Shown piece after piece: positions 52,761-63,922 of a DNA stretch of 64,000 nt (position 1 is its first letter; each line of letters begins with the position of its first letter). Location: NCBI GenBank assembly GCA_947497295.1, contig CANMFU010000004.1:25916-89915 (forward strand), read 5' to 3'. Origin of the DNA: an uncultured Roseovarius sp. (GTDB lineage: Bacteria; Pseudomonadota; Alphaproteobacteria; Rhodobacterales; Rhodobacteraceae). A program made the position numbers and the translations under genes. Below the pieces are notes generated by a model. The model was not told where the DNA came from. It worked only from the letters and a program-made list of their open reading frames with translations, and did no database searches.

Positions 52761-53520
52761 AGTTCCTGACACCCGCGCCGGCCGAAAGCCTGAAGGTCGG
52801 CACCGTGCATCCCGATTTGTGATCGGATCAGCCATTAGATCCAAGGTGATTGCAATGCACGCCATACGCGAGTGTCGTGAGACTTGGGAAAGGCAAGGAT
52901 TACGCGACGATCAAAGGTCGCGCAAAATTGAACGGCTTTCAGATGATACTCCGGGATCGGGCCGGGCAGCCCCCATTTTATCACGCGTCCAGACCTTGTC
53001 GCAGATCGTTCAACCATTAGAACTCCGCACCATTTTCGCCTTGTCTATGATCGACCGAACACCAAATTTTTCAGGACAACAGTCTGCGTGAAAGTTAACG
53101 AGGCGCAAGGGCACCGACCCAAGTTCGATTGCATCAGGCGTGCATTACATGGACCATCACCGCCGCTGAAGCGGTCGCAGAAACAACGCGCGTGACGCAT
53201 CAAATACTTGGACCCTCCGCTATGAAAAAATCGGAGCACCTACCAGCGCGTCAGAGCCGCATCGGCACAACCCATCACCGGGCGTTGTTACGCAGTACCA
53301 TTGCCGGTAGCAGGTCCATTGAAAACGTGCGGGCAACGCTTCATGACGCGCGGTCTTGACCGTCAGACCACTTTGGTTTCAATCCGCAAGGCTGGCGTGA
53401 TCGGTGACACGGCGTTTGAGATGCCTTGCAAAAAATGCAAGAATAACGGCAAGCGGCTTTTTGTTCTGGAAACGCTCGGGTCGATACCGACGCGCGGCAG
53501 GCGATCAACCTCGCTTGATG

Positions 53521-54258
53521 TCACCGCAACATGGTTCCCCCGCCATCCGCCATCAGCGTTTGACCGGTCATATATTGGCTGCTGTCGCCCAAAAGGAACA
53601 CGACGACTGGTGCGATATCCTTCTGAGGATCTCCGAACCGACCAAGCGGGACTTTCGCCGCGACTTCATCATATTGATCGCCGTGGCTCTGTTTCCATTT
53701 TTCAACGCCCTCGGTCAGGGCCAAGGGACACACAATATTGACCCGGATACCGTCTTTGGCCCATTCATTGGCCGCAACGCGGGTCAATCCGCGTATCGCC
53801 TCTTTGGCGGCGGCATAGCTTGCCTGATTTTTCTGTCCGTTCAATGCGGCCCCGGACCCAAAATTGACGATGGATCCTTTGGTCTTGGCAAGTTCCGGAT
53901 GCGCGGCCTTCATGAAGTTCAACGTCCCCGAAAAACCTGTGTCAAATGACAGCGCCCAATCTTCGGGAGTGTGATCCAGCAAAGGTTTTTGGCGCGACGC
54001 GTGGGCATTGTTCACCAATCCGGTAAGTTTGCCGAATTTCGATACCGCCATTTCAACGGCGTCCTTGGCCACCTGTTCCTTGGAAATATCCCCTTTCATA
54101 AACGCGACGTGATCAGGGTTGGCCTTGGCGATGTCCTGACCGGCCTCCTCATTCAGATCGACAGCGACGACATGCGCGCCAAGCTCCACCAGCTCGGCGG
54201 TGATTGCGCCGCCAATCCCCGCCGCACCGCCGGTTACGATAACAACCTGATTTTCCAT
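53521..54258 (-). CDS. Classical short-chain dehydrogenase/reductase
   Basis: TGGAAGIG, VDLN (NAD-type Asp), VNNAH, YAAAK, IRVN and TGQTLMADGG; RBS AAGGA. Confidence 0.93.
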   Translation of the reverse strand: MENQVVIVTGGAAGIGGAITAELVELGAHVVAVDLNEEAGQDIAKANPDHVAFMKGDISKEQVAKDAVEMAVSKFGKLTGLVNNAHASRQKPLLDHTPEDWALSFDTGFSGTLNFMKAAHPELAKTKGSIVNFGSGAALNGQKNQASYAAAKEAIRGLTRVAANEWAKDGIRVNIVCPLALTEGVEKWKQSHGDQYDEVAAKVPLGRFGDPQKDIAPVVVFLLGDSSQYMTGQTLMADGGGTMLR

Positions 54259-54431
54259 TCTGCTATTCCTTTTCTGCTGCGTTGGTCGACGTCCAATTAA
54301 AAGTCGCTCGTTGCAATCAACGGATCTTGTGTAGCGCTCAAATTCCGCCACTCAGGTCATCCAAACAGGCTTTCGTTTGCCGCCTCAGTGAACTTAAACA
54401 TCCCGTTGGTGTAATTAAACACCATGCCTGC

Positions 54432-55100
54432 GACCAGGCCCGGTGCTCATAGCAAAAGCGCCACGGTTGCATCTAGAGCGATTGCAAAGAGGACTACTTT
54501 TGGGCATCGATCGTAACGGCTGGCCACGCGCCGCCGGTTTTTCGAGATCCCAAAAAATGATCTGGATCCGATTGCATTTCCTGAAACGGCGCTTGTCAAA
54601 TTCAATGGGTTTGTCGCGTGACTTTCGTCCAAGAAGGCGAGGCTTTGTTCCAATAACAACAAGAGCGTTTCTGAAGCCGCCGGCATCATACCTTCCATCT
54701 CCCGGCAGTGAGTAAGCCGCTGAGAGGCTATTCACTCAAGCCCCTGCACCGGCTTGGTCGCTGGCCCGACCGGCAATAAAAAAAACCGGATCGTACGACC
54801 GATTGCATCGGTGACAGCATGCAACCTGATCTCACTCGTCGATTGTTCCAATCGCCTGCCGGGCAACGTTTCATGCTGCCTTTCGCCGATCCTATCAGAC
54901 GTCCACGCCTTCTCTTTTCATCCGCAAGCTTGGGGCCGCATGGGGGATCTTGAGATAGATAGCGCCAATCTAAATCGACTTGTTTTCGGCTACCCGGGCA
55001 GACCGAACGCCACTTTGATAATCAGACAGGCTTTTGCTGTGAGCCTGCGGACCTCCGGGGTCGTCCGCCAAAGCCGCCTCCGAGGCCATAGAGCGCGCAC
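54432..55100 (-). mobile_element. IS5-family two-ORF transposase remnant
   Basis: Frameshifted pieces: IYLKIPHAAPSLR, GRLIGSAKGSM, LHAVTDAIGR.IRFF, DGRYDA, FDKRRFRKCNRI and RRVASRYDRCPKV. Confidence 0.82.
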
Positions 55101-55307
55101 CATATTGATGGCGCACCCTTCGGCTCAAGGTTTAGCCGCGGTCTGATGGACTCCGATTTCGTAAGTCGACAGGGTTCAAAGCTTACGACGACCGGCGGAC
55201 AAACCGAATTTAACCCATAAACCTCTCAGGCTGTTCCGTGCCGCACAGCCCCATTGCGCGCCAAATCCGCCTATCCCGGTGGTTTTGGCGTCCAGAAGCA
55301 ATTCCGA

Positions 55308-55859
55308 TCAGAACGGATCGGGTTCTCCATCCGGAAGGGGCACGCTGAATGCGTTTATCGTCATTGAAATCAACGTATAATAGCCAAGTATTCCAACCAG
55401 CTCGACCGCGCCCTCGACTCCGTAATGCGCGACCACTGCGGCATAGGTCGCATCTGAAACCTGATGGGTTCGATGCAGTTCGTCGGCAAAAGAATAAACA
55501 GCCGCTTCATCATCGGCGGTAAAAGTAGGTGTTTTTCCGCAACGGATATCTTCGACGATATTTGCCGCCAGCCCGTGCTGCAGGGCGATAGGCGCATGAA
55601 CGGCCCATTCGAACCCTGAGGCCCAAAACGCGCCTGTCACCAGAATTGCCAGCTCTGACACGCGTGGCGGCAGGCGCGTATCATACCGGCAAAACGCGCC
55701 CAACGCCTGCGCGCGGTCCGCCAGCTTTGGCGATTGCAGCCAGACCCGCAGCGGACCCTGCACCAGGCCGCGCTTGCCGCCGGCGATGGCGTCAAAGACA
55801 GTCTGCTGCTCGGATGTGAGCGCGTTTTCGTCCAAGATAGGGTGGCGGTTGTCGGACAT
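55308..55859 (-). CDS. Carboxymuconolactone decarboxylase/AhpD-like family protein
   Basis: GPLRVWLQSP, ELAILVTG, FEWAVHAP and GYYTLISMTIN; no CxxC. Confidence 0.85.
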   Translation of the reverse strand: MSDNRHPILDENALTSEQQTVFDAIAGGKRGLVQGPLRVWLQSPKLADRAQALGAFCRYDTRLPPRVSELAILVTGAFWASGFEWAVHAPIALQHGLAANIVEDIRCGKTPTFTADDEAAVYSFADELHRTHQVSDATYAAVVAHYGVEGAVELVGILGYYTLISMTINAFSVPLPDGEPDPF

Positions 55860-56033
55860 GAGGTAGCCTTTCTGGTTTGGTACGGGGCGCACCGCAAAAT
55901 GCCTGCTGAAAGCGGCCGATAAGCGATACGCAACGCATGCCGGAGCGTTGAGCAGCGCAATGATACGGCCGTCAGACTGACGGTCGTATCGCAGGTTGAA
56001 GGGCACGGGACGCCGCGTCGGATACGATCGGCA

Positions 56034-57371
56034 TCATACGGCGATTGCCCGATCTATCGCGCCCGAAAGCTTGTCGACCAGTTCGCCGATCTGGTCGTCG
56101 GTGATGATGAAAGGCGGGGCCAGCAGAACGTGATCGCCCCGTTGCCCGTCGATGGTACCCGACATCGGATAGCAGATCAGACCGGCGGCAAAGGCTTCCT
56201 TTTTGATCCGCGCGGCTATGCCGCGACTTGGCTCGAACGCCGCCTTGGTCGCCCGGTCGGCGACAAGTTCGACCCCGCGAAACAGACCGCGCCCACGAAT
56301 GTCACCGACATGGGCGTGCTGTCCCAGCGCAGAGCGCAGCGCGGACTCCAGCTGCAGACCCTGCGTTTGCACGCGGCCTAACAGATCGCGGTCCAGTATT
56401 TCGTCCAGAACGGCATTGGCGGCGGTCGCGGCAAGCGCATGACCCATGTAGGTATGTCCGTGTTGGAAAAAGCCTGTCCCGGACGCGATCGCGTCATAGA
56501 TCGCCGCGGTTGTCATAAGCGCACCTATCGGCTGATACCCAGCGCCAAGACCCTTTGCGATTGTAATCATGTCCGGCGCGACGCCGTCCTCAGCGCAGGC
56601 GAACAGATGGCCCGTGCGCCCCATGCCGCACATCACCTCGTCAAAGATCAGCAGCACGCCGTAGCGGTCACATATCTCGCGGATGCGCCGCAGGTACCCG
56701 GGCACCGCGGGCACAGCCCCGCTGGTGGCCCCCACCACAGGCTCGGCTATGAAAGCCATGACTGTTTCGGCGCCCACCCGCTGGATCTCGGACTCCAGTT
56801 CGTTCGCCACACGCAGACCGTAGGCTTCGGGCGTCTCATCCTCGCGGCGGTCGCGATATTCATAGCACGGGCTGATATGGGTGGTATCCGCCAGAAGCGG
56901 GGCAAATTGCGCGCGGCGCCATGCGTTGCCACCGGCAGCAAGCGCGCCCAGCGTATTGCCATGATAGCTTTGCCGACGCGCGATAACGCGATGCCGCTCC
57001 GGCTGGCCGATTTCCAGAAAGTACTGTCGCGCCAGTTTTATGGCGGCCTCGACAGCCTCTGATCCGCCTGAAACCAGATACACCCGATCGATTTCGCCCG
57101 GCGCATAGGACACCAGACGATCGGCCAGCCGTTCGGCGGGTTCTGAGGTGAAAAAGCCCGTATGCGCAAAGGCAAGTTGATCAATCTGCGCATGAAGAGC
57201 TGTTCGCACGGCTGCGTTGGAATGTCCCAGGCACGATACGGCCGCGCCCCCCGACCCGTCCAGATACCGCTTGCCATCGGCATCGATCAGATAGCACCCG
57301 TCGCCGGTCACTGCTGTGGGTAGGGCGCCCTTTGTTGATCGCCCAAAGATATGTCCCGCCATGCGATTCAA
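56034..57371 (-). CDS. Class III PLP-dependent aminotransferase
   Basis: YLDGSGGAAV..LGH, YHGNT, FIAEPVVGA, DEVMCG and IAKGLGAGY (PLP Lys). The start is either 57371 (overlapping the USP stop) or 57362. Confidence 0.93.
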   Translation of the reverse strand: MNRMAGHIFGRSTKGALPTAVTGDGCYLIDADGKRYLDGSGGAAVSCLGHSNAAVRTALHAQIDQLAFAHTGFFTSEPAERLADRLVSYAPGEIDRVYLVSGGSEAVEAAIKLARQYFLEIGQPERHRVIARRQSYHGNTLGALAAGGNAWRRAQFAPLLADTTHISPCYEYRDRREDETPEAYGLRVANELESEIQRVGAETVMAFIAEPVVGATSGAVPAVPGYLRRIREICDRYGVLLIFDEVMCGMGRTGHLFACAEDGVAPDMITIAKGLGAGYQPIGALMTTAAIYDAIASGTGFFQHGHTYMGHALAATAANAVLDEILDRDLLGRVQTQGLQLESALRSALGQHAHVGDIRGRGLFRGVELVADRATKAAFEPSRGIAARIKKEAFAAGLICYPMSGTIDGQRGDHVLLAPPFIITDDQIGELVDKLSGAIDRAIAV

Positions 57372-57799
57372 TACCTGACGACAAGCACAGAGACAGGCGA
57401 ACGGCGCACGATACGGTCGGCGTTCGACCCCACCAGAAATTCGCGCACGCGGTCGGGCTTGTGCGACGCCATGACCACCAGATCGCAGGCGATCTCTTCG
57501 ATCACGTGCAAGACCCTGCGGTGGATCTTGCCGAATGCCAGATGCTGCTTGACTCGTACATCGCTTGGGACGTTCTCCTCGACAAGCTTGTCGAGCGCCT
57601 TGCTGGCGGCCTCGACGGCCAATTTCTCGTAATCGGGCGGAAAGAACCCATCGACCAATGGCATACCCATATCAGGTACGACCGACATGATATGCAGCTT
57701 GCCGCCAGAGGTGCGAACCAGCTCGATCGCTGCCGGCAGCGCCTTTTCCCATGATGCTTTGGCGTTCAGGTCGATGGTCAGAAGAACCGTGTTGAACAT
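57368..57799 (-). CDS. Universal stress protein (TRAP-associated)
   Basis: DLVVMASHKP...FLVGSNADRIVRRSPVSVLVVR. Confidence 0.93.
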   Translation of the reverse strand: MFNTVLLTIDLNAKASWEKALPAAIELVRTSGGKLHIMSVVPDMGMPLVDGFFPPDYEKLAVEAASKALDKLVEENVPSDVRVKQHLAFGKIHRRVLHVIEEIACDLVVMASHKPDRVREFLVGSNADRIVRRSPVSVLVVRY

Positions 57800-57810
57800 C
57801 GTCTCTCTCC

Positions 57811-60582
57811 TCAGGCGTGTGCGGTTTTGCGTGGCGCGCGCGTGTTGCGGCCCCGCTGCAGGAAGACGATCAGCGCCAGCAAAAGCAGCGCCGGAATGAA
57901 CATCCAGTATTTGCTGGGTTGCGGCATGGGTTTCAGAACGCGCAGCACCTCTTGGTCCCAGTCCAGCCCGGCCTCTGCCGCCGCGCTGCCAAAGGCGACG
58001 TCGTCGATGAACATCTTGTCGCCCTCGTCCCGGAAGGTCAGGCCGGCATTCTCCAGTTTTTCTTCGCCTGTCGCACCTTCGGTGATCGGGACCAGCGCGA
58101 CGAACTCGATCGGGTCGCCCAGATCGTTCACGCCTGCCACGCGCAGCCGCAGCCTTTGGCCGGTGTCGGTGTCGGCGGCGGCCTGTGTGATCGCAGACGG
58201 GTCCTCCTCGAGATACGGCGCGCTGACCATGTCCATCCAGAAACCGGGGCGGAACAGGGTGAACGCGATCAGCAGCAGGACGATGGTTTCATAGAACCGG
58301 TTCCTGGCAAGAAACCAGCCTTGCGTGGCCGCCGCGAACAGCAGCATCGCCACCGTCGCGACAATGAAGACAAAGATCCCCTGCACCATCGTCACGTTGA
58401 TCAGCAGCAGTTCGGTATTGAAGATGAACAGGAACGGCAGCGCCGCCGTCCGTAAGCTGTAGAAGAACGCGATCACGCCTGTCTTGATCGGATCCCCGCC
58501 CGAAACGGCGGCAGCGGCGAAGGAGGCAAGCCCGACGGGCGGCGTCACATCGGCCATGATGCCGAAGTAGAACACGAACAAGTGCACCGCGATCAGCGGC
58601 ACGATCAGCCCGTTTTGCTGCCCCAGCGTCACGATCACCGGCGCCAGCAGCGCGGAGACGACGATGTAGTTTGCCGTCGTCGGCAGGCCCATGCCAAGGA
58701 TCAGCGACAGGATTGCCGTGAGGAACAGGATCGCAAGGATATTGCCGCCCGACAGGACTTCGACCACATCGGCAAGGGCCGATCCCACGCCGGTCTGGCT
58801 GACCACGCCGACGATGATACCGGCCGTGGCGGTGGCAATGCCGATGCCGATCATGTTCCGGGCACCGACGACCAGACCTTCCAACAGATCTATCGCGCCT
58901 TCCTTTACGCGGGCGCCCATTTCGCCTTCGCCGCGCAGCATCGCCATCAGCGGGCGCTGCGTGATCAGGATAAAGATCATGTACATCGTCGCCCAGAATG
59001 CCGACAGGCCCGGCGACAGGCGATCCACCATCAACGCCCAGACCAGCACGACGACCGGCAGGATAAAGTGCAGACCCGACCGCACGGTTGGTCCGGGCAG
59101 CGGCAGTTTCGTCACCTCTGCGTCCGGATCGTCCATCTTCAGCGGTGCTTCTTTCGAGGCAACGTAGAGCAGCCCGACATAGGCAGCCGTCAGGACGACG
59201 AAGATGATGTAAGGTGCTGCGACGGGAAAGGCGGGGCGGATCCAGCCCATGCCGTAATAAACCAGGAACGACAGCCCGCAGATGAACGCGACGCCGAACA
59301 CGAAACCGATCAGGCGCTGGATGATCGGCTTGGGCTCATAGGGGCGCTCAAGACCCTCCATCCCGGCCTTCAACGCCTCCAGATGGACGATATAGACCAG
59401 CGCTATGTAAGAAATCAAGGCGGGCAGGAACGCGTGTTTGACCACGTCAAAATAGGGGATACCGACATATTCCACCATCAGAAAAGCGGCGGCGCCCATG
59501 ACCGGCGGCATGATCTGACCGTTGACGGATGAGGCCACCTCGACCGCGCCGGCCTTCTCAGAGCTGAAGCCGACCTTTTTCATCAAGGGGATGGTGAACG
59601 TGCCGGTGGTCACGACGTTCGCGATGCTTGAGCCCGAGATCAGGCCGGTCATGGCGGATGACACCACAGCAGCCTTGGCCGGGCCGCCTTTCATGTGACC
59701 CATCAGCGAAAACGCTACCTGAATGAAATAGTTACCGGCCCCCGCGCGATCCAGCAGCGAGCCGAACAGCACGAACAGGAACACGAAACTTGTCGACACG
59801 CCCAGGGCGATGCCAAAGACGCCTTCTGTCGTGATCCACTGATGGTTCACGATCTCCGACAGGTTGTTGCCCTTGTGCGCTATGATGCTGGGCATCTGAG
59901 GACCAAGCACGGTGTAGACCAGAAACACGGTCGCCACGATCATCAGGGCCGGTCCCAATGCGCGGCGGGTGGCCTCCAGCAGCAGTATGATACCGATGAC
60001 GGACACCACGAAATCCTGCATGATCGGCGCGCCGACGCGACCGGAAATATCGCGATAGTAGACGAAAAGGTAAAGCGCAGCGGCGGCACCAACGATGGCC
60101 AGCGCCCATTCCCAGAAAGGCACGCGGTCCTTTGGGCTGCCCAGAACGATCGCGGCGACGACGGCCAGACCGACGACAGGGATCCACCAGACGGCGGTGC
60201 CGTCCTTGGAGCTGACCACGAACAGATAGGACAGCAGAAGCGGGATCACGATGCCCAGACCCAACTGGAATTTTGACCGCGTCGCGGGAAAGGCGGCAAA
60301 GGCCAGGAAAATGGCGAAGGCAAGGTGGATCGACCGGCTTTCGGTATCGTTGAATACGCCCCATCCAACGATGAACGGGATCGGCGAAGCGATCCAGAGC
60401 TGGAAGAGGGACCACGCCAGCGCGACAAGCATCAGGAAGGTTCCAACCGGGCCTGCGATATTGCGGCCACCAGTGTCGGCTGAGGCGACAAGCGCGTCCA
60501 GTTCGGACTGGTCCAGACCGCCGCGACCAGCCGCCTCGTTTTCAACGCGCGCAGCCTGATGCTGGTTTGGGTCGTCGGTCAT
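57811..60582 (-). CDS. TAXI-type TRAP transporter fused 4TM/12TM permease with C-terminal DUF3394-like domain
   Basis: LLEATRRALG, GGPAKAAV, ANVVTTG, PPVMGAAAF, LGMGLPTTANY and DVTPPV. Confidence 0.95.
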   Translation of the reverse strand: MTDDPNQHQAARVENEAAGRGGLDQSELDALVASADTGGRNIAGPVGTFLMLVALAWSLFQLWIASPIPFIVGWGVFNDTESRSIHLAFAIFLAFAAFPATRSKFQLGLGIVIPLLLSYLFVVSSKDGTAVWWIPVVGLAVVAAIVLGSPKDRVPFWEWALAIVGAAAALYLFVYYRDISGRVGAPIMQDFVVSVIGIILLLEATRRALGPALMIVATVFLVYTVLGPQMPSIIAHKGNNLSEIVNHQWITTEGVFGIALGVSTSFVFLFVLFGSLLDRAGAGNYFIQVAFSLMGHMKGGPAKAAVVSSAMTGLISGSSIANVVTTGTFTIPLMKKVGFSSEKAGAVEVASSVNGQIMPPVMGAAAFLMVEYVGIPYFDVVKHAFLPALISYIALVYIVHLEALKAGMEGLERPYEPKPIIQRLIGFVFGVAFICGLSFLVYYGMGWIRPAFPVAAPYIIFVVLTAAYVGLLYVASKEAPLKMDDPDAEVTKLPLPGPTVRSGLHFILPVVVLVWALMVDRLSPGLSAFWATMYMIFILITQRPLMAMLRGEGEMGARVKEGAIDLLEGLVVGARNMIGIGIATATAGIIVGVVSQTGVGSALADVVEVLSGGNILAILFLTAILSLILGMGLPTTANYIVVSALLAPVIVTLGQQNGLIVPLIAVHLFVFYFGIMADVTPPVGLASFAAAAVSGGDPIKTGVIAFFYSLRTAALPFLFIFNTELLLINVTMVQGIFVFIVATVAMLLFAAATQGWFLARNRFYETIVLLLIAFTLFRPGFWMDMVSAPYLEEDPSAITQAAADTDTGQRLRLRVAGVNDLGDPIEFVALVPITEGATGEEKLENAGLTFRDEGDKMFIDDVAFGSAAAEAGLDWDQEVLRVLKPMPQPSKYWMFIPALLLLALIVFLQRGRNTRAPRKTAHA

Positions 60583-60667
60583 GTCTGTCCCCCGGTAACC
60601 CGCAAAAAGGCGGGCAAGATTTTTATGATTATTGTCAGGCCTGTCTTATCTGAACGATCTTTCAGAA

Positions 60668-60693
60668 GGTGGCAGCCAGTGAAGGCTGCCACC
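60668..60693. other. Intercistronic stem-loop between TAXI binding protein and permease
   Basis: GGTGGCAGCC-AGTGAA-GGCTGCCACC, a perfect 10-bp stem. Confidence 0.6.
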
Positions 60694-60712
60694 CGTGTCA
60701 ATCCGCCGGAAA

Positions 60713-61669
60713 TTACATCCAGCCCATTTCCTTGTAGTACCGCTCGGCACCCGGATGCAGAGGTGCCGACAGACCATCCTTGATCATCTCTTCTTCGGTC
60801 AGGTTGCCAAAGGCCGGATGAAGTTTCTTGAAGCGGTCAAAGTTGTCGAACACGGCCTTGACCACTTGATAGACTGTTTCTTCGGGCACATCGGCCGAGG
60901 TCACGAATGTCGCCTTCACACCGAATGTCTGGGTGTCGTCGGGTGATCCTTCATACATGCCGCCCGGAATGGTCGCGGTGGCATAATAGGGGTTGTCGGC
61001 GACCAACGCTTCGATCTCGGGCCCGGTGACGGGCACAAGGACTGTCTCGACTGTCGAGGCCGCTTCCTGAACCGATCCGTTCGGGTGACCGACCGTATAG
61101 ATGATCGCATCGACCTTGTTGTCGCCCAAGGCTGCGGCCTGCTCGGCCGGTTTCAGCTCGGACGCCAGCGCAAAGTCGTCCATCGTCCAGCCCAATGCCT
61201 CCATGACGACCTGCATGGTCGCATACTGGCCGGAACCGGGATTGCCGATGTTGACGCGCTTGCCCTTGAGATCGGCAAACTCCGTGATGCCGGCATCGGC
61301 GCGCGCAACCACGGTGAACGGTTCGGAATGAACAGAAAAGACAGCGCGCTCCTTGTCGAACTTGTTGCCTTCGAAGTCGGATGTGCCGTTATAGGCGTGG
61401 TACTGCCAGTCCGATTGCGCGACGCCCATCGTCATGTCACCCGCCATGATGGCGTTGATGTTTGCGATGGACCCACCGGTCGACGGGGCGGTGCATTTCA
61501 GGTTTGTCTCGGCTGTGGTGCGGTTCACCAGACGACAGATTGATTGCCCGACAACAAAGTAGACGCCGGTCTGCCCGCCCGTCCCGATCGTGATGAACTG
61601 TTCCTGAGCGTGCGCTCCGGTTCCTGCGATCATCGCGCCCACTAGGGCCATTTGCTTAAGTATCTTCAC
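60713..61669 (-). CDS. TAXI-family TRAP solute-binding protein
   Basis: Signal peptide, ITIGTGGQTGVY, STGGSIANI, GNPGSG and PLHPGAERYYKE. GTG start after GGGAGA. Confidence 0.95.
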   Translation of the reverse strand: MKILKQMALVGAMIAGTGAHAQEQFITIGTGGQTGVYFVVGQSICRLVNRTTAETNLKCTAPSTGGSIANINAIMAGDMTMGVAQSDWQYHAYNGTSDFEGNKFDKERAVFSVHSEPFTVVARADAGITEFADLKGKRVNIGNPGSGQYATMQVVMEALGWTMDDFALASELKPAEQAAALGDNKVDAIIYTVGHPNGSVQEAASTVETVLVPVTGPEIEALVADNPYYATATIPGGMYEGSPDDTQTFGVKATFVTSADVPEETVYQVVKAVFDNFDRFKKLHPAFGNLTEEEMIKDGLSAPLHPGAERYYKEMGWM

Positions 61670-61871
61670 GTATTTCTCCCGGTTAATAATGCAACTTTAC
61701 CGTGCTTTGCGGTAGGTTGCGTTTTTAGCAATGGCGTTCATCAGTCTCTTCTGAACGCCCTCGCGAGCGAGACCCAAGTATTCTTTTTCGGTACTCGATG
61801 ACACGGACACACTGCGTTTTAATGTGGAAATGCCTACCGATGGTCCAACTTGCTTCTCGATTGTCCAGATT

Positions 61872-61900
61872 AGTATGATGTAGCGGATTTAACGTGTCAA
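61872..61900 (-). promoter_or_regulatory. Sigma70-type promoter for the TAXI operon
   Basis: The minus strand reads TTGACA-17 nt-CATACT. Confidence 0.6.
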
Positions 61901-62289
61901 CGTAGCATGCTGGCATCGCCACATCGCGCAGTTGGTGGTCGTCGCCCGCACAGACATGTCTTATATTCATACATAAAAATACATTATATATCAATTATTT
62001 AACCAAGTTACGCATTGCGATTGGGGCGGGTTGTGTGACCCAGATCTCACTAGGGAGCATGTTCTTTTCCGGCTCACATGTTCGTGGAAATCAACATTCC
62101 GCGAAATGCGTCAAGTTGCGAGCGGGCACTTTCTGGAGATGATCGCGTAAGCTGCGGATATATATACGGTCTGCCCAATCAGACCGCGCCAGACCAACAA
62201 ATCGCTCGCGCTTTGGGGCCTCGCATGGATGTGGGGATGCGCTGGCGGGCCGTGGGGGGCGCCTATCCACCTCGCGACCTCAGCTAGGA

Positions 62290-62968
62290 CAGGATGTCGA
62301 ACGCGCCCAACTCTCAGGACCGGTCTGCAACCTTTTTTAACGGGGCGTAGCTATTGGCGCTTGGCCGAGAAACCGGGGCAACGCGTCGAAGGCCCGCCAG
62401 GTCATGGGCATGTTGCACGGTGCGCCCTATCGCTGCGAGTTGGCGGTGTCGAGGACGGCGATGGCGAGGCGATGTCTGAACACGCAAGGCCCAAGTCCAA
62501 TCTGGCGGACCGGGTGAATGATCGCGTACTGATGTTCAATGCAGCACATAACTTTGCGCTGCTGCGAATTCCGACAGCTCGGGGCGCGAAATCGTGCGGT
62601 CGGGTCGCCGAGGGTGACTTTCGGCTCTTTTCTGACACTCAATAACATCGCCCGGTACCAAGACGCTCCCTATACAAGCGGTATCTGTGAGCGGCTCCAC
62701 AAGAGCGTCCCGCAGGAGATTTATCAAGTCGCGTTCCGAAAGAAGCTTTACGACAGTAAAATTGCGCTGCGGGTCGATCTGGACAACTGGCTACGTCACT
62801 AAAAATACGCGCACACCCATCCGGGCCAACTGTGTTGCGGCAGAACGCCCATCGAAACTATCGTAGACAGCACGGAACCATGGCGTGAAAAGCGCGCCAA
62901 AGGAACGTTGACTGACAGACGCCGCGGGAAACGCGGCCACCTGTCAGATTGCGTCTGGCCCATTATGA
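62290..62968 (+). mobile_element. IS481-family transposase remnant
   Basis: NDRVL...LLRIPTARG..SCGRV, GICERLHKSV.QEIYQVAFRKKLYDS and G.LCCGRTP.ET, with frameshifts and stops. Confidence 0.85.
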
Positions 62969-63127
62969 AAGATGCATGGAGTAGCAACGAATTTATGCAA
63001 TTCGCATAACTCTTAACCACAGATTTTCCATCGCAAAACCGGCAGGTTTTCATCTGCCACACATCCTTCGATGGTCACTTGGACATTCTGTGCACAACGG
63101 GCAGATCCTTCGGGCCCGACACGCAGA

Positions 63128-63865
63128 TTACATCTTGCGGAGCAGGTAGGTGTCCATAATCCAGCCATGTTCGGCACGGGCAGCCCGGCGGATGGCATCT
63201 ATACGGTCAGCAGCATCCGCGAGGGGCCCGTGACACAGTACCTGTTCGGCCATCCCCAGAAATGCCCCCCACCAGATACTGATATCTTCGGGGTCCAATT
63301 TTCGGAAGCTGCATTCGCCGTCCAGCATGACCACGACCGTCTCGGCGCCCGTGGGCCAGCCGTGATCGCGCAGGCGCCGACCGGTGGTGATCTGCACCGG
63401 GCCATTTACGGTGTTCACAGGAATGGCATGGGCCGCCGTCAGGGCCTGAATCGCGGTGATCCCAGGCACGACGCGGATCTTTGGCGTCACAGGCAGACGC
63501 GCAGCAATACGCATGGTGCTGTCATAGAGCGATGGATCGCCCCATACCATCAACGCAACAGGGCCGGGCGCGTCGGCACTGCCCAAGGCTGCCTGCCACC
63601 GCTCGGCAATCTGGTCATGCCATGCGGCGACCCGCGCGACATAGGGCAGGCCCGGATCGCGCACCGGATAATCAAAGAGAACGACGCGCGCCGCCGTGCC
63701 GCTGGCGGCAATGATGCGATGTCGTAATTCGGCCAGATCGTCTTTGCCCGCGCCCTTTTGCGGCACAAGGATAGTTGCCGCATCGCGCAGCGCCTGCATC
63801 CCCTCGCCCGTCACATGGCCGGGGCTGCCTGTGCCGATCCCGATCAGCCACAGATCCTGAATCAC
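63128..63865 (-). CDS. cobF: Precorrin-6A synthase (deacetylating)
   Basis: LIGIGTGSP, VWGDPSLYDST, VPGITAIQAL, ITTGRRL, WWGAFLG and GWIMDTYLLR. Confidence 0.95.
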   Translation of the reverse strand: MIQDLWLIGIGTGSPGHVTGEGMQALRDAATILVPQKGAGKDDLAELRHRIIAASGTAARVVLFDYPVRDPGLPYVARVAAWHDQIAERWQAALGSADAPGPVALMVWGDPSLYDSTMRIAARLPVTPKIRVVPGITAIQALTAAHAIPVNTVNGPVQITTGRRLRDHGWPTGAETVVVMLDGECSFRKLDPEDISIWWGAFLGMAEQVLCHGPLADAADRIDAIRRAARAEHGWIMDTYLLRKM

Positions 63866-63922
63866 AGCGTCATCCCGCGAGGTTCCGGGCCCGTCGCCGG
63901 GCCCGGCGATACCGGCCTGCAC

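Follow-up and report, generated by a model that had tools for sequence, protein, structure and literature searches.

A GluP-type TAXI-TRAP system joined to a class III aminotransferase in a chimeric gene block of Roseovarius

Gene content and limits of the block

The window analysed here, a stretch of 64,000 nt from an uncultured Roseovarius sp., carries five open reading frames on the minus strand at 55308-61669, so that the five co-directional genes described by the first-pass annotation are all present. These encode a TAXI-family SBP of the GluP type, here termed type I (318 aa, 60713-61669), a fused TRAP permease with a C-terminal DUF3394 "claw" (923 aa, 57811-60582), a universal stress protein (USP) of the type I lineage (143 aa, 57368-57799), a class III, omega-type aminotransferase (AT) of family NF005685/PRK07483 (442 aa, 56034-57362), and an AhpD/CMD-fold protein (183 aa, 55308-55859). 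The USP gene starts 11 nt past the permease gene. For the AT, ATG 57362 is the most likely start codon rather than 57371, as its orthologs are 442 aa long; this start lies 5 nt past the USP stop codon, in agreement with the earlier view that the two genes are nearly coupled. The most likely start codon of the CMD-like gene is ATG 55859, which is preceded by a GAAAGG ribosome-binding site, and a 232-aa reading of this gene (55308-56006) was dropped, its homologs having 183 aa.

In a comparison with three other Roseovarius genomes, synteny extends from about 61949 (61949/61907) to 55304 and takes in exactly the five genes. The block keeps the same extent in three different flanking contexts, with the CMD-like gene as the last shared gene. 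The gene maps of the relatives, for which genes were called by a GC3-GC2 score, are approximate. The five genes may be read as a single transcription unit. A promoter-like site, TTGACA-17-CATACT, was located by a consensus scan on the minus strand at 61872-61900, approximately 200 nt ahead of the SBP start codon, and may function as a promoter; by the same scan, such sites are no more numerous in the region than in shuffled sequence. The site falls within the stretch that is syntenic with the Roseovarius relatives. Between the SBP and permease genes, a strong G+C-rich stem-loop of 10 bp stands on the minus strand at 60668-60693, 20 nt past the SBP stop codon. The RNA fold of 60575-60720 has a z-score of -3.46, with none of 200 shuffles as stable, and the stem-loop is a probable partial terminator or attenuator. 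The 175-nt spacer between the AT and CMD-like genes (55860-56033, minus strand) is poorly conserved relative to R. nanhaiticus, and a search of it for terminators gave none that was convincing. A weak terminator-like hairpin at 55304-55321 (minus strand) overlaps the stop codon of the CMD-like gene, at the point where synteny with the relatives stops. An Rfam scan of 54300-63200 (E <= 0.1) placed no RNA family in the spacers.

The transporter module and its probable ligand

The SBP matches PF16868 at 302 bits and TIGR02122 at 353 bits (cut-off 84), and is approximately 58% identical to VcGluP of Vibrio cholerae (PDB 8S4J, E 1e-117), which is glutamate-specific, with Y45 and Q93 as key residues of the ligand site (PMC11574862). 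Every direct side-chain ligand contact of VcGluP is kept in the window protein. Across the Rhodobacteraceae, V44, Y45, S75, Q93, H123, E125, G156, and G203 are shared without exception by the 53 SBPs examined, while Y200, present in the window SBP, is kept in most of the 53 and is otherwise F or W. Relative to VcGluP, the window SBP carries four substitutions at second-shell, water-network, or peripheral positions (S40G, Y46F, D157Q, and M201T), and its specificity could therefore have shifted. The contact of M201 with the ligand in VcGluP is made by main-chain atoms alone. The ligand probably belongs to the glutamate class, with L-glutamate or L-glutamine as the most likely candidates and a close analogue as a possible one. 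Import of an "unusual amino acid or amine", as proposed earlier, is possible, yet the binding site gives no sign of such a substrate, because the SBP is so similar to a glutamate-specific protein and retains all of its ligand contacts.

The permease matches TIGR02123 at 652 bits (cut-off 321) and PF06808, and its residues 735-914 match PF11874 (DUF3394) at 229 bits. The USP, which matches PF00582 at 86 bits, shares 56-66% identity with USPs from several other type I loci vs. approximately 40% with those of type II loci (see below). The ATP-binding motif of TeaD-type USPs is G-2x-G-9x-G(S/T); in the window USP this motif is incomplete and reads ASHK...GS. Judged from these matches, the SBP, permease, and USP together are a VcGluPQM-UspA-type system.

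Linkage of the aminotransferase and chimeric origin of the unit

The AT matches NF005685 at 772 bits (cut-off 485) over model positions 2-440 of 444, and PF00202 at 331 bits. The NF005685 (PRK07483) family bears a generic name only, and the closest solved structure comes from structural genomics and carries no annotation (3I4J). Solved structures of amine and polyamine:pyruvate transaminases match the AT with E values of 1e-66 to 1e-86. The AT was found in 180 of 301 genera. A division into two paralog families was considered and rejected, as the AT is essentially single-copy and the range of identities is continuous. Among 60 sampled Rhodobacteraceae AT loci, each from a different genus, 43 place the AT ortholog within approximately 9 kb of a GluP-type TAXI-USP module, which upholds the first-pass suggestion that transporter and AT form a conserved unit; in 14 of these 43 the USP gene ends <=100 nt upstream of the AT, and the same AT-TAXI linkage recurs in 14/20 further relatives. 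The arrangements vary (co-directional, divergent, or 6 kb apart, in several gene orders), and the linkage has thus been kept through rearrangements, which argues for a functional link. It could be supposed that the genes are coincidental neighbors, a housekeeping glutamate importer beside a functionally unrelated AT and CMD-like gene, as V. cholerae possesses VcGluPQM-UspA without an AT and as a nearby TAXI is lacking at 17 of the 60 AT loci. However, this is highly improbable given that co-localization reaches 72% in the 60 genera against an expectation of <1% for a single locus in a genome of 4 Mb, that the linkage outlasts at least four gene orders and one AT replacement, and that the USP-AT gap is 5 nt. 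Literature searches gave no paper on the TAXI-AT gene pair.

Two types of module can be distinguished. Type II modules include an RpiR regulator and a BKACE enzyme, whereas type I modules, to which the window's transporter belongs, have neither. BKACE is the usual partner after the AT elsewhere; it lies directly before or after the AT in 22 of the 60 loci, never in type I loci, and is absent from the window locus. There, no BKACE (PF05853) gene or remnant was detected, and the two BKACE genes of the genome are on contigs C3 and C13. A search for an RpiR/SIS regulator or remnant gave no RpiR match in the window and only distant matches (24-27% identity) elsewhere in the genome. The window SBP falls within the type I clade (SBP tree, SH-aLRT 95), but the window AT is nested within the type II, BKACE-linked AT clade (AT tree, 97-99), and a tree constrained to hold all type I-linked ATs in a single clade is worse by 178 lnL units (AU test, p-AU 4e-73). 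The window therefore combines a transporter and USP of type I with an AT of type II descent, which sits directly after the USP gene, with the junction exactly at the USP/AT boundary. In this Roseovarius lineage the unit is a recombinant, its AT deriving from a type II operon (RpiR / SBP-QM-USP-AT-BKACE) whose BKACE and RpiR genes were lost.

The type I loci of other genera carry a PuuR-like regulator, GabT (TIGR00700, above cut-off), an aldehyde dehydrogenase, a CN-hydrolase, and a large Orn/Lys/Arg-type decarboxylase, and at the nearest relative outside the lineage (L061) the AT is followed by carboxynorspermidine-decarboxylase-like and saccharopine-dehydrogenase-like genes. Such neighbors, together with the similarity of the AT to amine and polyamine:pyruvate transaminases, would suit an amine or polyamine regulon in which the AT acts as a SpuC/PatA-like diamine or omega-amino-acid transaminase and the TAXI system imports a precursor or co-substrate resembling glutamate (e.g., glutamine, citrulline, or ornithine-type or gamma-glutamyl compounds). 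However, none of those genes lies within the window cassette, the CN-hydrolase/decarboxylase block of the window genome is on another contig (C1:1206369-1212688), and the window AT belongs to the BKACE-linked lineage rather than the PuuR/GabT-linked one, all of which makes a polyamine role very unlikely here.

The CMD-fold gene, readings of the pathway, and known systems

The CMD-like protein scores 18.7 bits against PF02627, under the cut-off of 23, although many of its homologs carry a precomputed PF02627 match, and a PDB sequence search returned chance-level matches only. Its AF2 model (pLDDT 91.7) is predicted to adopt an AhpD-like all-helical fold, with Foldseek TM scores of 0.76-0.80 to 6E8L and 3LVY at probability 1.00. 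The modeled fold and the similar length recall the hexameric AhpD-like proteins (S. pneumoniae AhpD, 6E8L; SMU.961, 3LVY; the debrominase Bmp8, 6OHJ; TM approximately 0.8), but identity to these is only approximately 15%. Invariant residues of the family are E69, G82-F83-E84-W85, and H88, preceded in the window protein by S81, and the sequence can be read as placing SxxExxxH at the CxxC position. With the redox CxxC replaced by SxxE, peroxidase or thiol chemistry is unlikely. The protein had been called "Cys-less", which holds insofar as there is no CxxC motif; however, two cysteines are present, of which C57, within C57-R58, is invariant in the family. Among 80 species with orthologs of this family, it stands beside the AT in only two Roseovarius MAGs, R. 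nanhaiticus being the sole other case observed, and no general linkage of the family (CMD1) to the AT was found outside Roseovarius. Its orthologs elsewhere occur with LysR, AtuA, and TAXI genes, near a group of Mo-hydroxylase, cyclase, and BKACE genes, or among unrelated neighbors. A second CMD subfamily, approximately 30% identical, also bears the SxxEWAxH signature. Its genes follow the AT at 5 of 15 type I loci and at one locus without TAXI, and at two of these loci the next gene encodes an aldehyde dehydrogenase.

These observations bear upon a three-step pathway in which an imported beta- or omega-amino acid (beta-glutamate and beta-alanine are examples) would be converted by the AT to a 3-oxo acid and then decarboxylated by the CMD-like protein, in replacement of the CoA-dependent BKACE cleavage of type II operons. 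Such a pathway is consistent with the adjacency of BKACE and AT outside type I loci, with the second subfamily and its aldehyde dehydrogenase neighbors, with a block that stops exactly after the CMD-like gene in three genomic contexts, and with a spacer that has no convincing terminator; further, as the window genome holds only three other PF02627 genes, chance adjacency of the AT and CMD-like genes is unlikely. However, the earlier assignment of the CMD-like protein to the following step is weakened by the 175-nt gap and its poor conservation, by an AT adjacency confined to the Roseovarius lineage, and by the missing canonical BKACE. In addition, polyamine-type genes take the position after the AT in L061, this CMD subfamily has no known decarboxylase activity, and the SBP site looks specific for alpha-amino acids. 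Taken together, we regard the three-step pathway as unlikely.

The reading that we favor, at a probability of roughly 0.6, is that the SBP, permease, USP, and AT constitute one conserved functional unit of recombinant origin. In this model, the VcGluPQM-type TAXI-TRAP system would import a glutamate-class amino acid, the USP may act on the transporter, by analogy with the role proposed for TeaD, and the translationally coupled omega-type AT would perform the first cytoplasmic step, either deaminating the imported compound or exchanging its amino group with the Glu/2-oxoglutarate pool. The gene of the 183-aa AhpD-fold protein would close the cassette in this lineage only, probably being transcribed by read-through from the AT, and any part of the protein in the pathway is putative.

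Several observations speak against this functional unit. If the ligand were plain L-glutamate, there would be no obvious reason for a class III AT as partner, nor for a beta-keto-acid cleavage enzyme as partner elsewhere. The 17 of 60 AT loci without TAXI, the four substitutions of the SBP relative to VcGluP, and the lack of a full TeaD-type ATP motif in the USP point the same way. A bolder possibility, which we consider distinctly unlikely, is that the Rhodobacteraceae GluP-type TAXI system and PRK07483-type AT form the entry module of an undescribed catabolism of an amino compound resembling glutamate, for instance beta-glutamate or an amino acid with a gamma substituent or a ureido group, rather than serving plain glutamate uptake, with two interchangeable downstream solutions: CoA-dependent BKACE cleavage or decarboxylation by a Cys-less AhpD-fold enzyme. 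If true, the latter would be a new catalytic function for the fold.

Few TAXI-TRAP substrates are known, and VcGluPQM, the sole close characterized relative, was studied without a metabolic partner. In approximately 70% of sampled Rhodobacteraceae genera a single uncharacterized AT accompanies this type of transporter, a pairing that has persisted through rearrangement and even through exchange of the AT. The function of this very common marine-bacterial gene pair could be assigned from the SBP ligand and the amino donor and acceptor of the AT, and may also explain the BKACE or CMD-fold gene that follows the AT. The locus would be an ordinary one if plain glutamate were the ligand and the AT acted as a general transaminase.

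Among known systems, the Kce/Kat pair of a variant lysine fermentation, a BKACE with a class III acyl-CoA beta-transaminase (PMC3149608), is a precedent for the combination of a class III AT with a beta-keto-acid cleavage enzyme seen in type II operons, although Kat resembles HemL, takes CoA thioesters as substrates, and belongs to an anaerobic pathway, and no BKACE stands beside the window AT. The TeaABC-TeaD system of Halomonas elongata, an ectoine TRAP transporter for which a regulatory USP role has been proposed (as cited in PMC11574862), likewise has a USP gene closing the TRAP transporter genes; however, TeaA is a DctP-type SBP, not TAXI, and the window USP departs from the full ATP motif. 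Type II operons, as in Cereibacter sphaeroides (RpiR / TAXI SBP-QM-USP-AT-BKACE), share with the window the order SBP-QM-USP-AT, a short USP-AT gap (approximately 10 nt in type II), and an AT that is 77-85% identical and among which the window AT nests. The window SBP, QM, and USP are instead of the type I clade, the QM being approximately 50% identical to type II QMs, and in place of BKACE, with RpiR also missing, a CMD-fold gene holds the position after the AT. The one close characterized relative is VcGluP-VcGluQM of V. cholerae (VC0430/VC0429; PDB 8S4J), in which the permease carries a DUF3394 claw domain and a UspA gene lies downstream of the transporter genes (PMC11574862). V. cholerae has no AT or CMD-like gene there, and the window SBP differs at S40G, Y46F, D157Q, and M201T; however, the two SBPs are approximately 58% identical, Y45, Q93, S75, E125, H123, and Y200 are kept, and the window permease is likewise fused, with a DUF3394 claw and a USP gene immediately downstream.

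The five-gene locus and the linkage of its aminotransferase

Five minus-strand ORFs occupy window positions 55308-61669, bearing out the five co-directional genes observed in the first-pass annotation. Assignment with Pfam and NCBIfam identifies them as a TAXI solute-binding protein (SBP; 60713-61669; TIGR02122, 353 bits), a fused TRAP permease (QM; 57811-60582; TIGR02123, 652 bits, with C-terminal DUF3394, 229 bits), a universal stress protein (USP; 57368-57799), a class III aminotransferase (AT; ORF 56034-57371; NF005685/PRK07483, 772 bits vs. a cut-off of 485) and a CMD-like protein (ORF 55308-56006; a sub-threshold CMD match, 18.7 bits vs. a cut-off of 23). Two starts require correction. 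As AT orthologs are 442 aa long and ATG 57362 lies 5 nt past the USP stop, the AT most likely begins at this codon; likewise, as CMD-like homologs are 182-190 aa long and a GAAAGG site precedes ATG 55859, the CMD-like protein most likely begins there, yielding 183 aa and a 175-nt spacer between the two genes. The closest database relatives are Roseovarius, the AT matching a Roseovarius MAG protein at 95% identity and that of R. nanhaiticus at 91%. The ~1.2 kb between the conserved cassette and cobF (63128-63922; TIGR02434), at 61950-63127, is not common to Roseovarius relatives and holds no ORF with a family match. Within the window, no dedicated regulator gene adjoins the operon, unlike in R. 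nanhaiticus, which carries a divergent AsnC-type gene there.

An AT ortholog, essentially single-copy, is present in 180 of the 301 genera of the family. When ~20 kb around the ortholog was searched in 60 genera, a GluP-type SBP-QM-USP module lay no more than ~9 kb away in 43, and the same linkage was found in 14 of 20 additional relatives; chance co-localization is expected in <1% (single locus, 4-Mb genome). Gene orders vary, from SBP-QM-USP-AT with an 8-12 nt gap, to divergent SBP and AT, to AT upstream, to a separation of ~6 kb. The AT is thus genuinely linked to the GluP-type TAXI module, and the first interpretation is partly supported, in that transporter and AT form a conserved pairing; evidence on the CMD-like step runs both ways. 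The AT family carries only a generic name in NCBIfam, the AT and TAXI unit is widespread, and the five-gene layout of the window is a lineage-specific variant of it; literature searches found no publication on the pairing.

Two module types and the origin of the window locus

The SBP tree splits AT-linked TAXI modules into two clades. [quoted passage not shown] At the 15 loci of type I, QM shares at least 70% identity with that of the window and neither BKACE nor RpiR occurs; the company of this type in other genera comprises a PuuR-like regulator, GabT, aldehyde dehydrogenase, CN-hydrolase, a large Orn/Lys/Arg-type decarboxylase, an ATP-grasp protein (NF005096) and a C45 hydrolase.

The window SBP falls in the type I clade (SH-aLRT 95), and its USP shares 56-66% identity with USPs of several type I loci vs. 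~40% with type II; SBP, QM and USP are accordingly classed, by sequence, as type I. The ATs of the window, R. nanhaiticus and G262 (the closest genus beyond the Roseovarius lineage) nest inside the type II BKACE-linked AT clade (support 97-99), and the remaining type I-linked ATs group apart in a clade of their own. Constraining all type I-linked ATs to one clade costs 178 log-likelihood units (p-AU 4e-73), for a group named only after tree inspection and defined by transporter, not by AT. The window locus is thus recombinant, joining a type I SBP-QM-USP to an AT of type II lineage, and because the change of lineage falls between USP and AT, the junction lies in the 5-nt spacer separating them. 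That an AT was kept in this place despite the exchange is further evidence that selection holds AT and TAXI together. Across 53500-57400, third-position G+C drops stepwise (QM 0.80, USP 0.74, AT 0.68, CMD-like 0.63, SDR 0.61), which fits a history of the AT and downstream genes other than that of the transporter.

The window locus has no BKACE gene, the genome's two copies sitting on other contigs. One adjoins an AT paralog 45% identical to the window's AT, this class III aminotransferase lying immediately upstream (contig C3:106706-108923), so that the AT-BKACE pair recurs even within the window's genome. The block of CN-hydrolase, 840-920-aa Orn/Lys/Arg-type decarboxylase, ATP-grasp protein and C45 autoproteolytic hydrolase that follows the USP in relatives (e.g., L032:3189-9263), and lies between TAXI USP and AT in several related genera, sits on contig C1 (1206369-1212688) in this genome; its ATP-grasp protein matches NF005096 “biotin carboxylase” (761 bits) and no Pfam family.

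The CMD-like gene

The AlphaFold model of the CMD-like protein (pLDDT 91.7) has an AhpD-like helical fold, resembling S. pneumoniae AhpD, SMU.961 and Bmp8 at TM ~0.8 with ~15% sequence identity. The CxxC motif of AhpD is missing; at what we take to be its expected position lies S81-x-x-E84-x-x-x-H88, with E69 twelve residues upstream, and E69, E84, H88 and C57-R58 do not vary within the family. That this protein acts catalytically right after the AT is unlikely, if well short of negligible. In favor of its belonging to the unit, synteny with three Roseovarius genomes, each with a differing flank, stops exactly at the CMD-like stop codon, no terminator was found in the 175-nt spacer, and only three further PF02627 genes occur in the genome. 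Moreover, at 5 of the 15 type I loci, all in other genomes, and at one TAXI-less locus, the AT has downstream of it a member of a second CMD subfamily that shares the SxxEWAxH signature, followed at two of these loci by aldehyde dehydrogenase. However, the spacer is little conserved, and across 80 species with orthologs the family neighbors the AT in only two Roseovarius MAGs. Further, in the closest outgroup, G262 (L061:6705-9135), the AT is instead followed by carboxynorspermidine-decarboxylase-like (PF00278) and saccharopine-dehydrogenase-like genes of polyamine biosynthesis. Elsewhere, CMD-like orthologs occur with Mo-hydroxylase, cyclase and BKACE, among unrelated neighbors, or after a LysR gene divergent from an AtuA, AtuA_ferredoxin and TAXI-TRAP cluster (L121, L122, L127-L130, L133, L138, L150), itself another, uncharacterised TAXI system.

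The proposed unit and its transporter

The best-supported model is a conserved unit that would take up and transaminate a glutamate-class compound, with the USP modulating the transporter; we infer both the substrate and the direction in which the AT works. In the window USP, the first two glycines of the ATP motif, G-2x-G-9x-G(S/T), are missing. The BKACE that accompanies the AT in type II operons suggests a 3-oxo acid as product, i.e., a beta-amino-acid substrate; GabT, aldehyde dehydrogenase and PuuR at type I loci point to amine or omega-amino-acid catabolism; and the SBP binding site suggests an alpha-amino dicarboxylate or the amide of one. We know of no pathway that reconciles these hints. 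A 10-bp G+C-rich hairpin at 60668-60693, 20 nt past the SBP stop and very stable by RNA folding (z -3.46), resembles the attenuator usual between binding-protein and permease genes, and together with a further hairpin (~60600-60615) immediately ahead of the permease start it likely sets the SBP:permease expression ratio.

The SBP matches V. cholerae VcGluP (PDB 8S4J/9IBO; E 1e-117) with ~58% identity across 294 residues, as counted from the alignment. VcGluP binds L-glutamate stereoselectively and with high affinity, and L-Gln and L-pyroglutamate more weakly (PMC11574862). When its published contact residues were mapped onto the window SBP and 52 further Rhodobacteraceae SBPs, V44, Y45, S75, Q93, H123, E125, G156 and G203 proved invariant in all 53, and Y200 was retained in most (elsewhere F or W). 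In contrast to VcGluP, nearly all have G in place of S40, Q in place of D157 and T in place of M201, and in the window's SBP clade Y46 has become F. The direct side-chain ligand contacts are thus preserved, and the water network at the distal carboxylate and alpha-carboxylate is altered. The ligand is most likely L-Glu or L-Gln, with a possible shift in specificity relative to VcGluP. As in V. cholerae, where the VcGluQM permease bears the DUF3394 “claw” and uspA lies downstream (PMC11574862), the window's QM carries DUF3394 and is followed by a USP gene; the transporter is a new member of the VcGluPQM kind.
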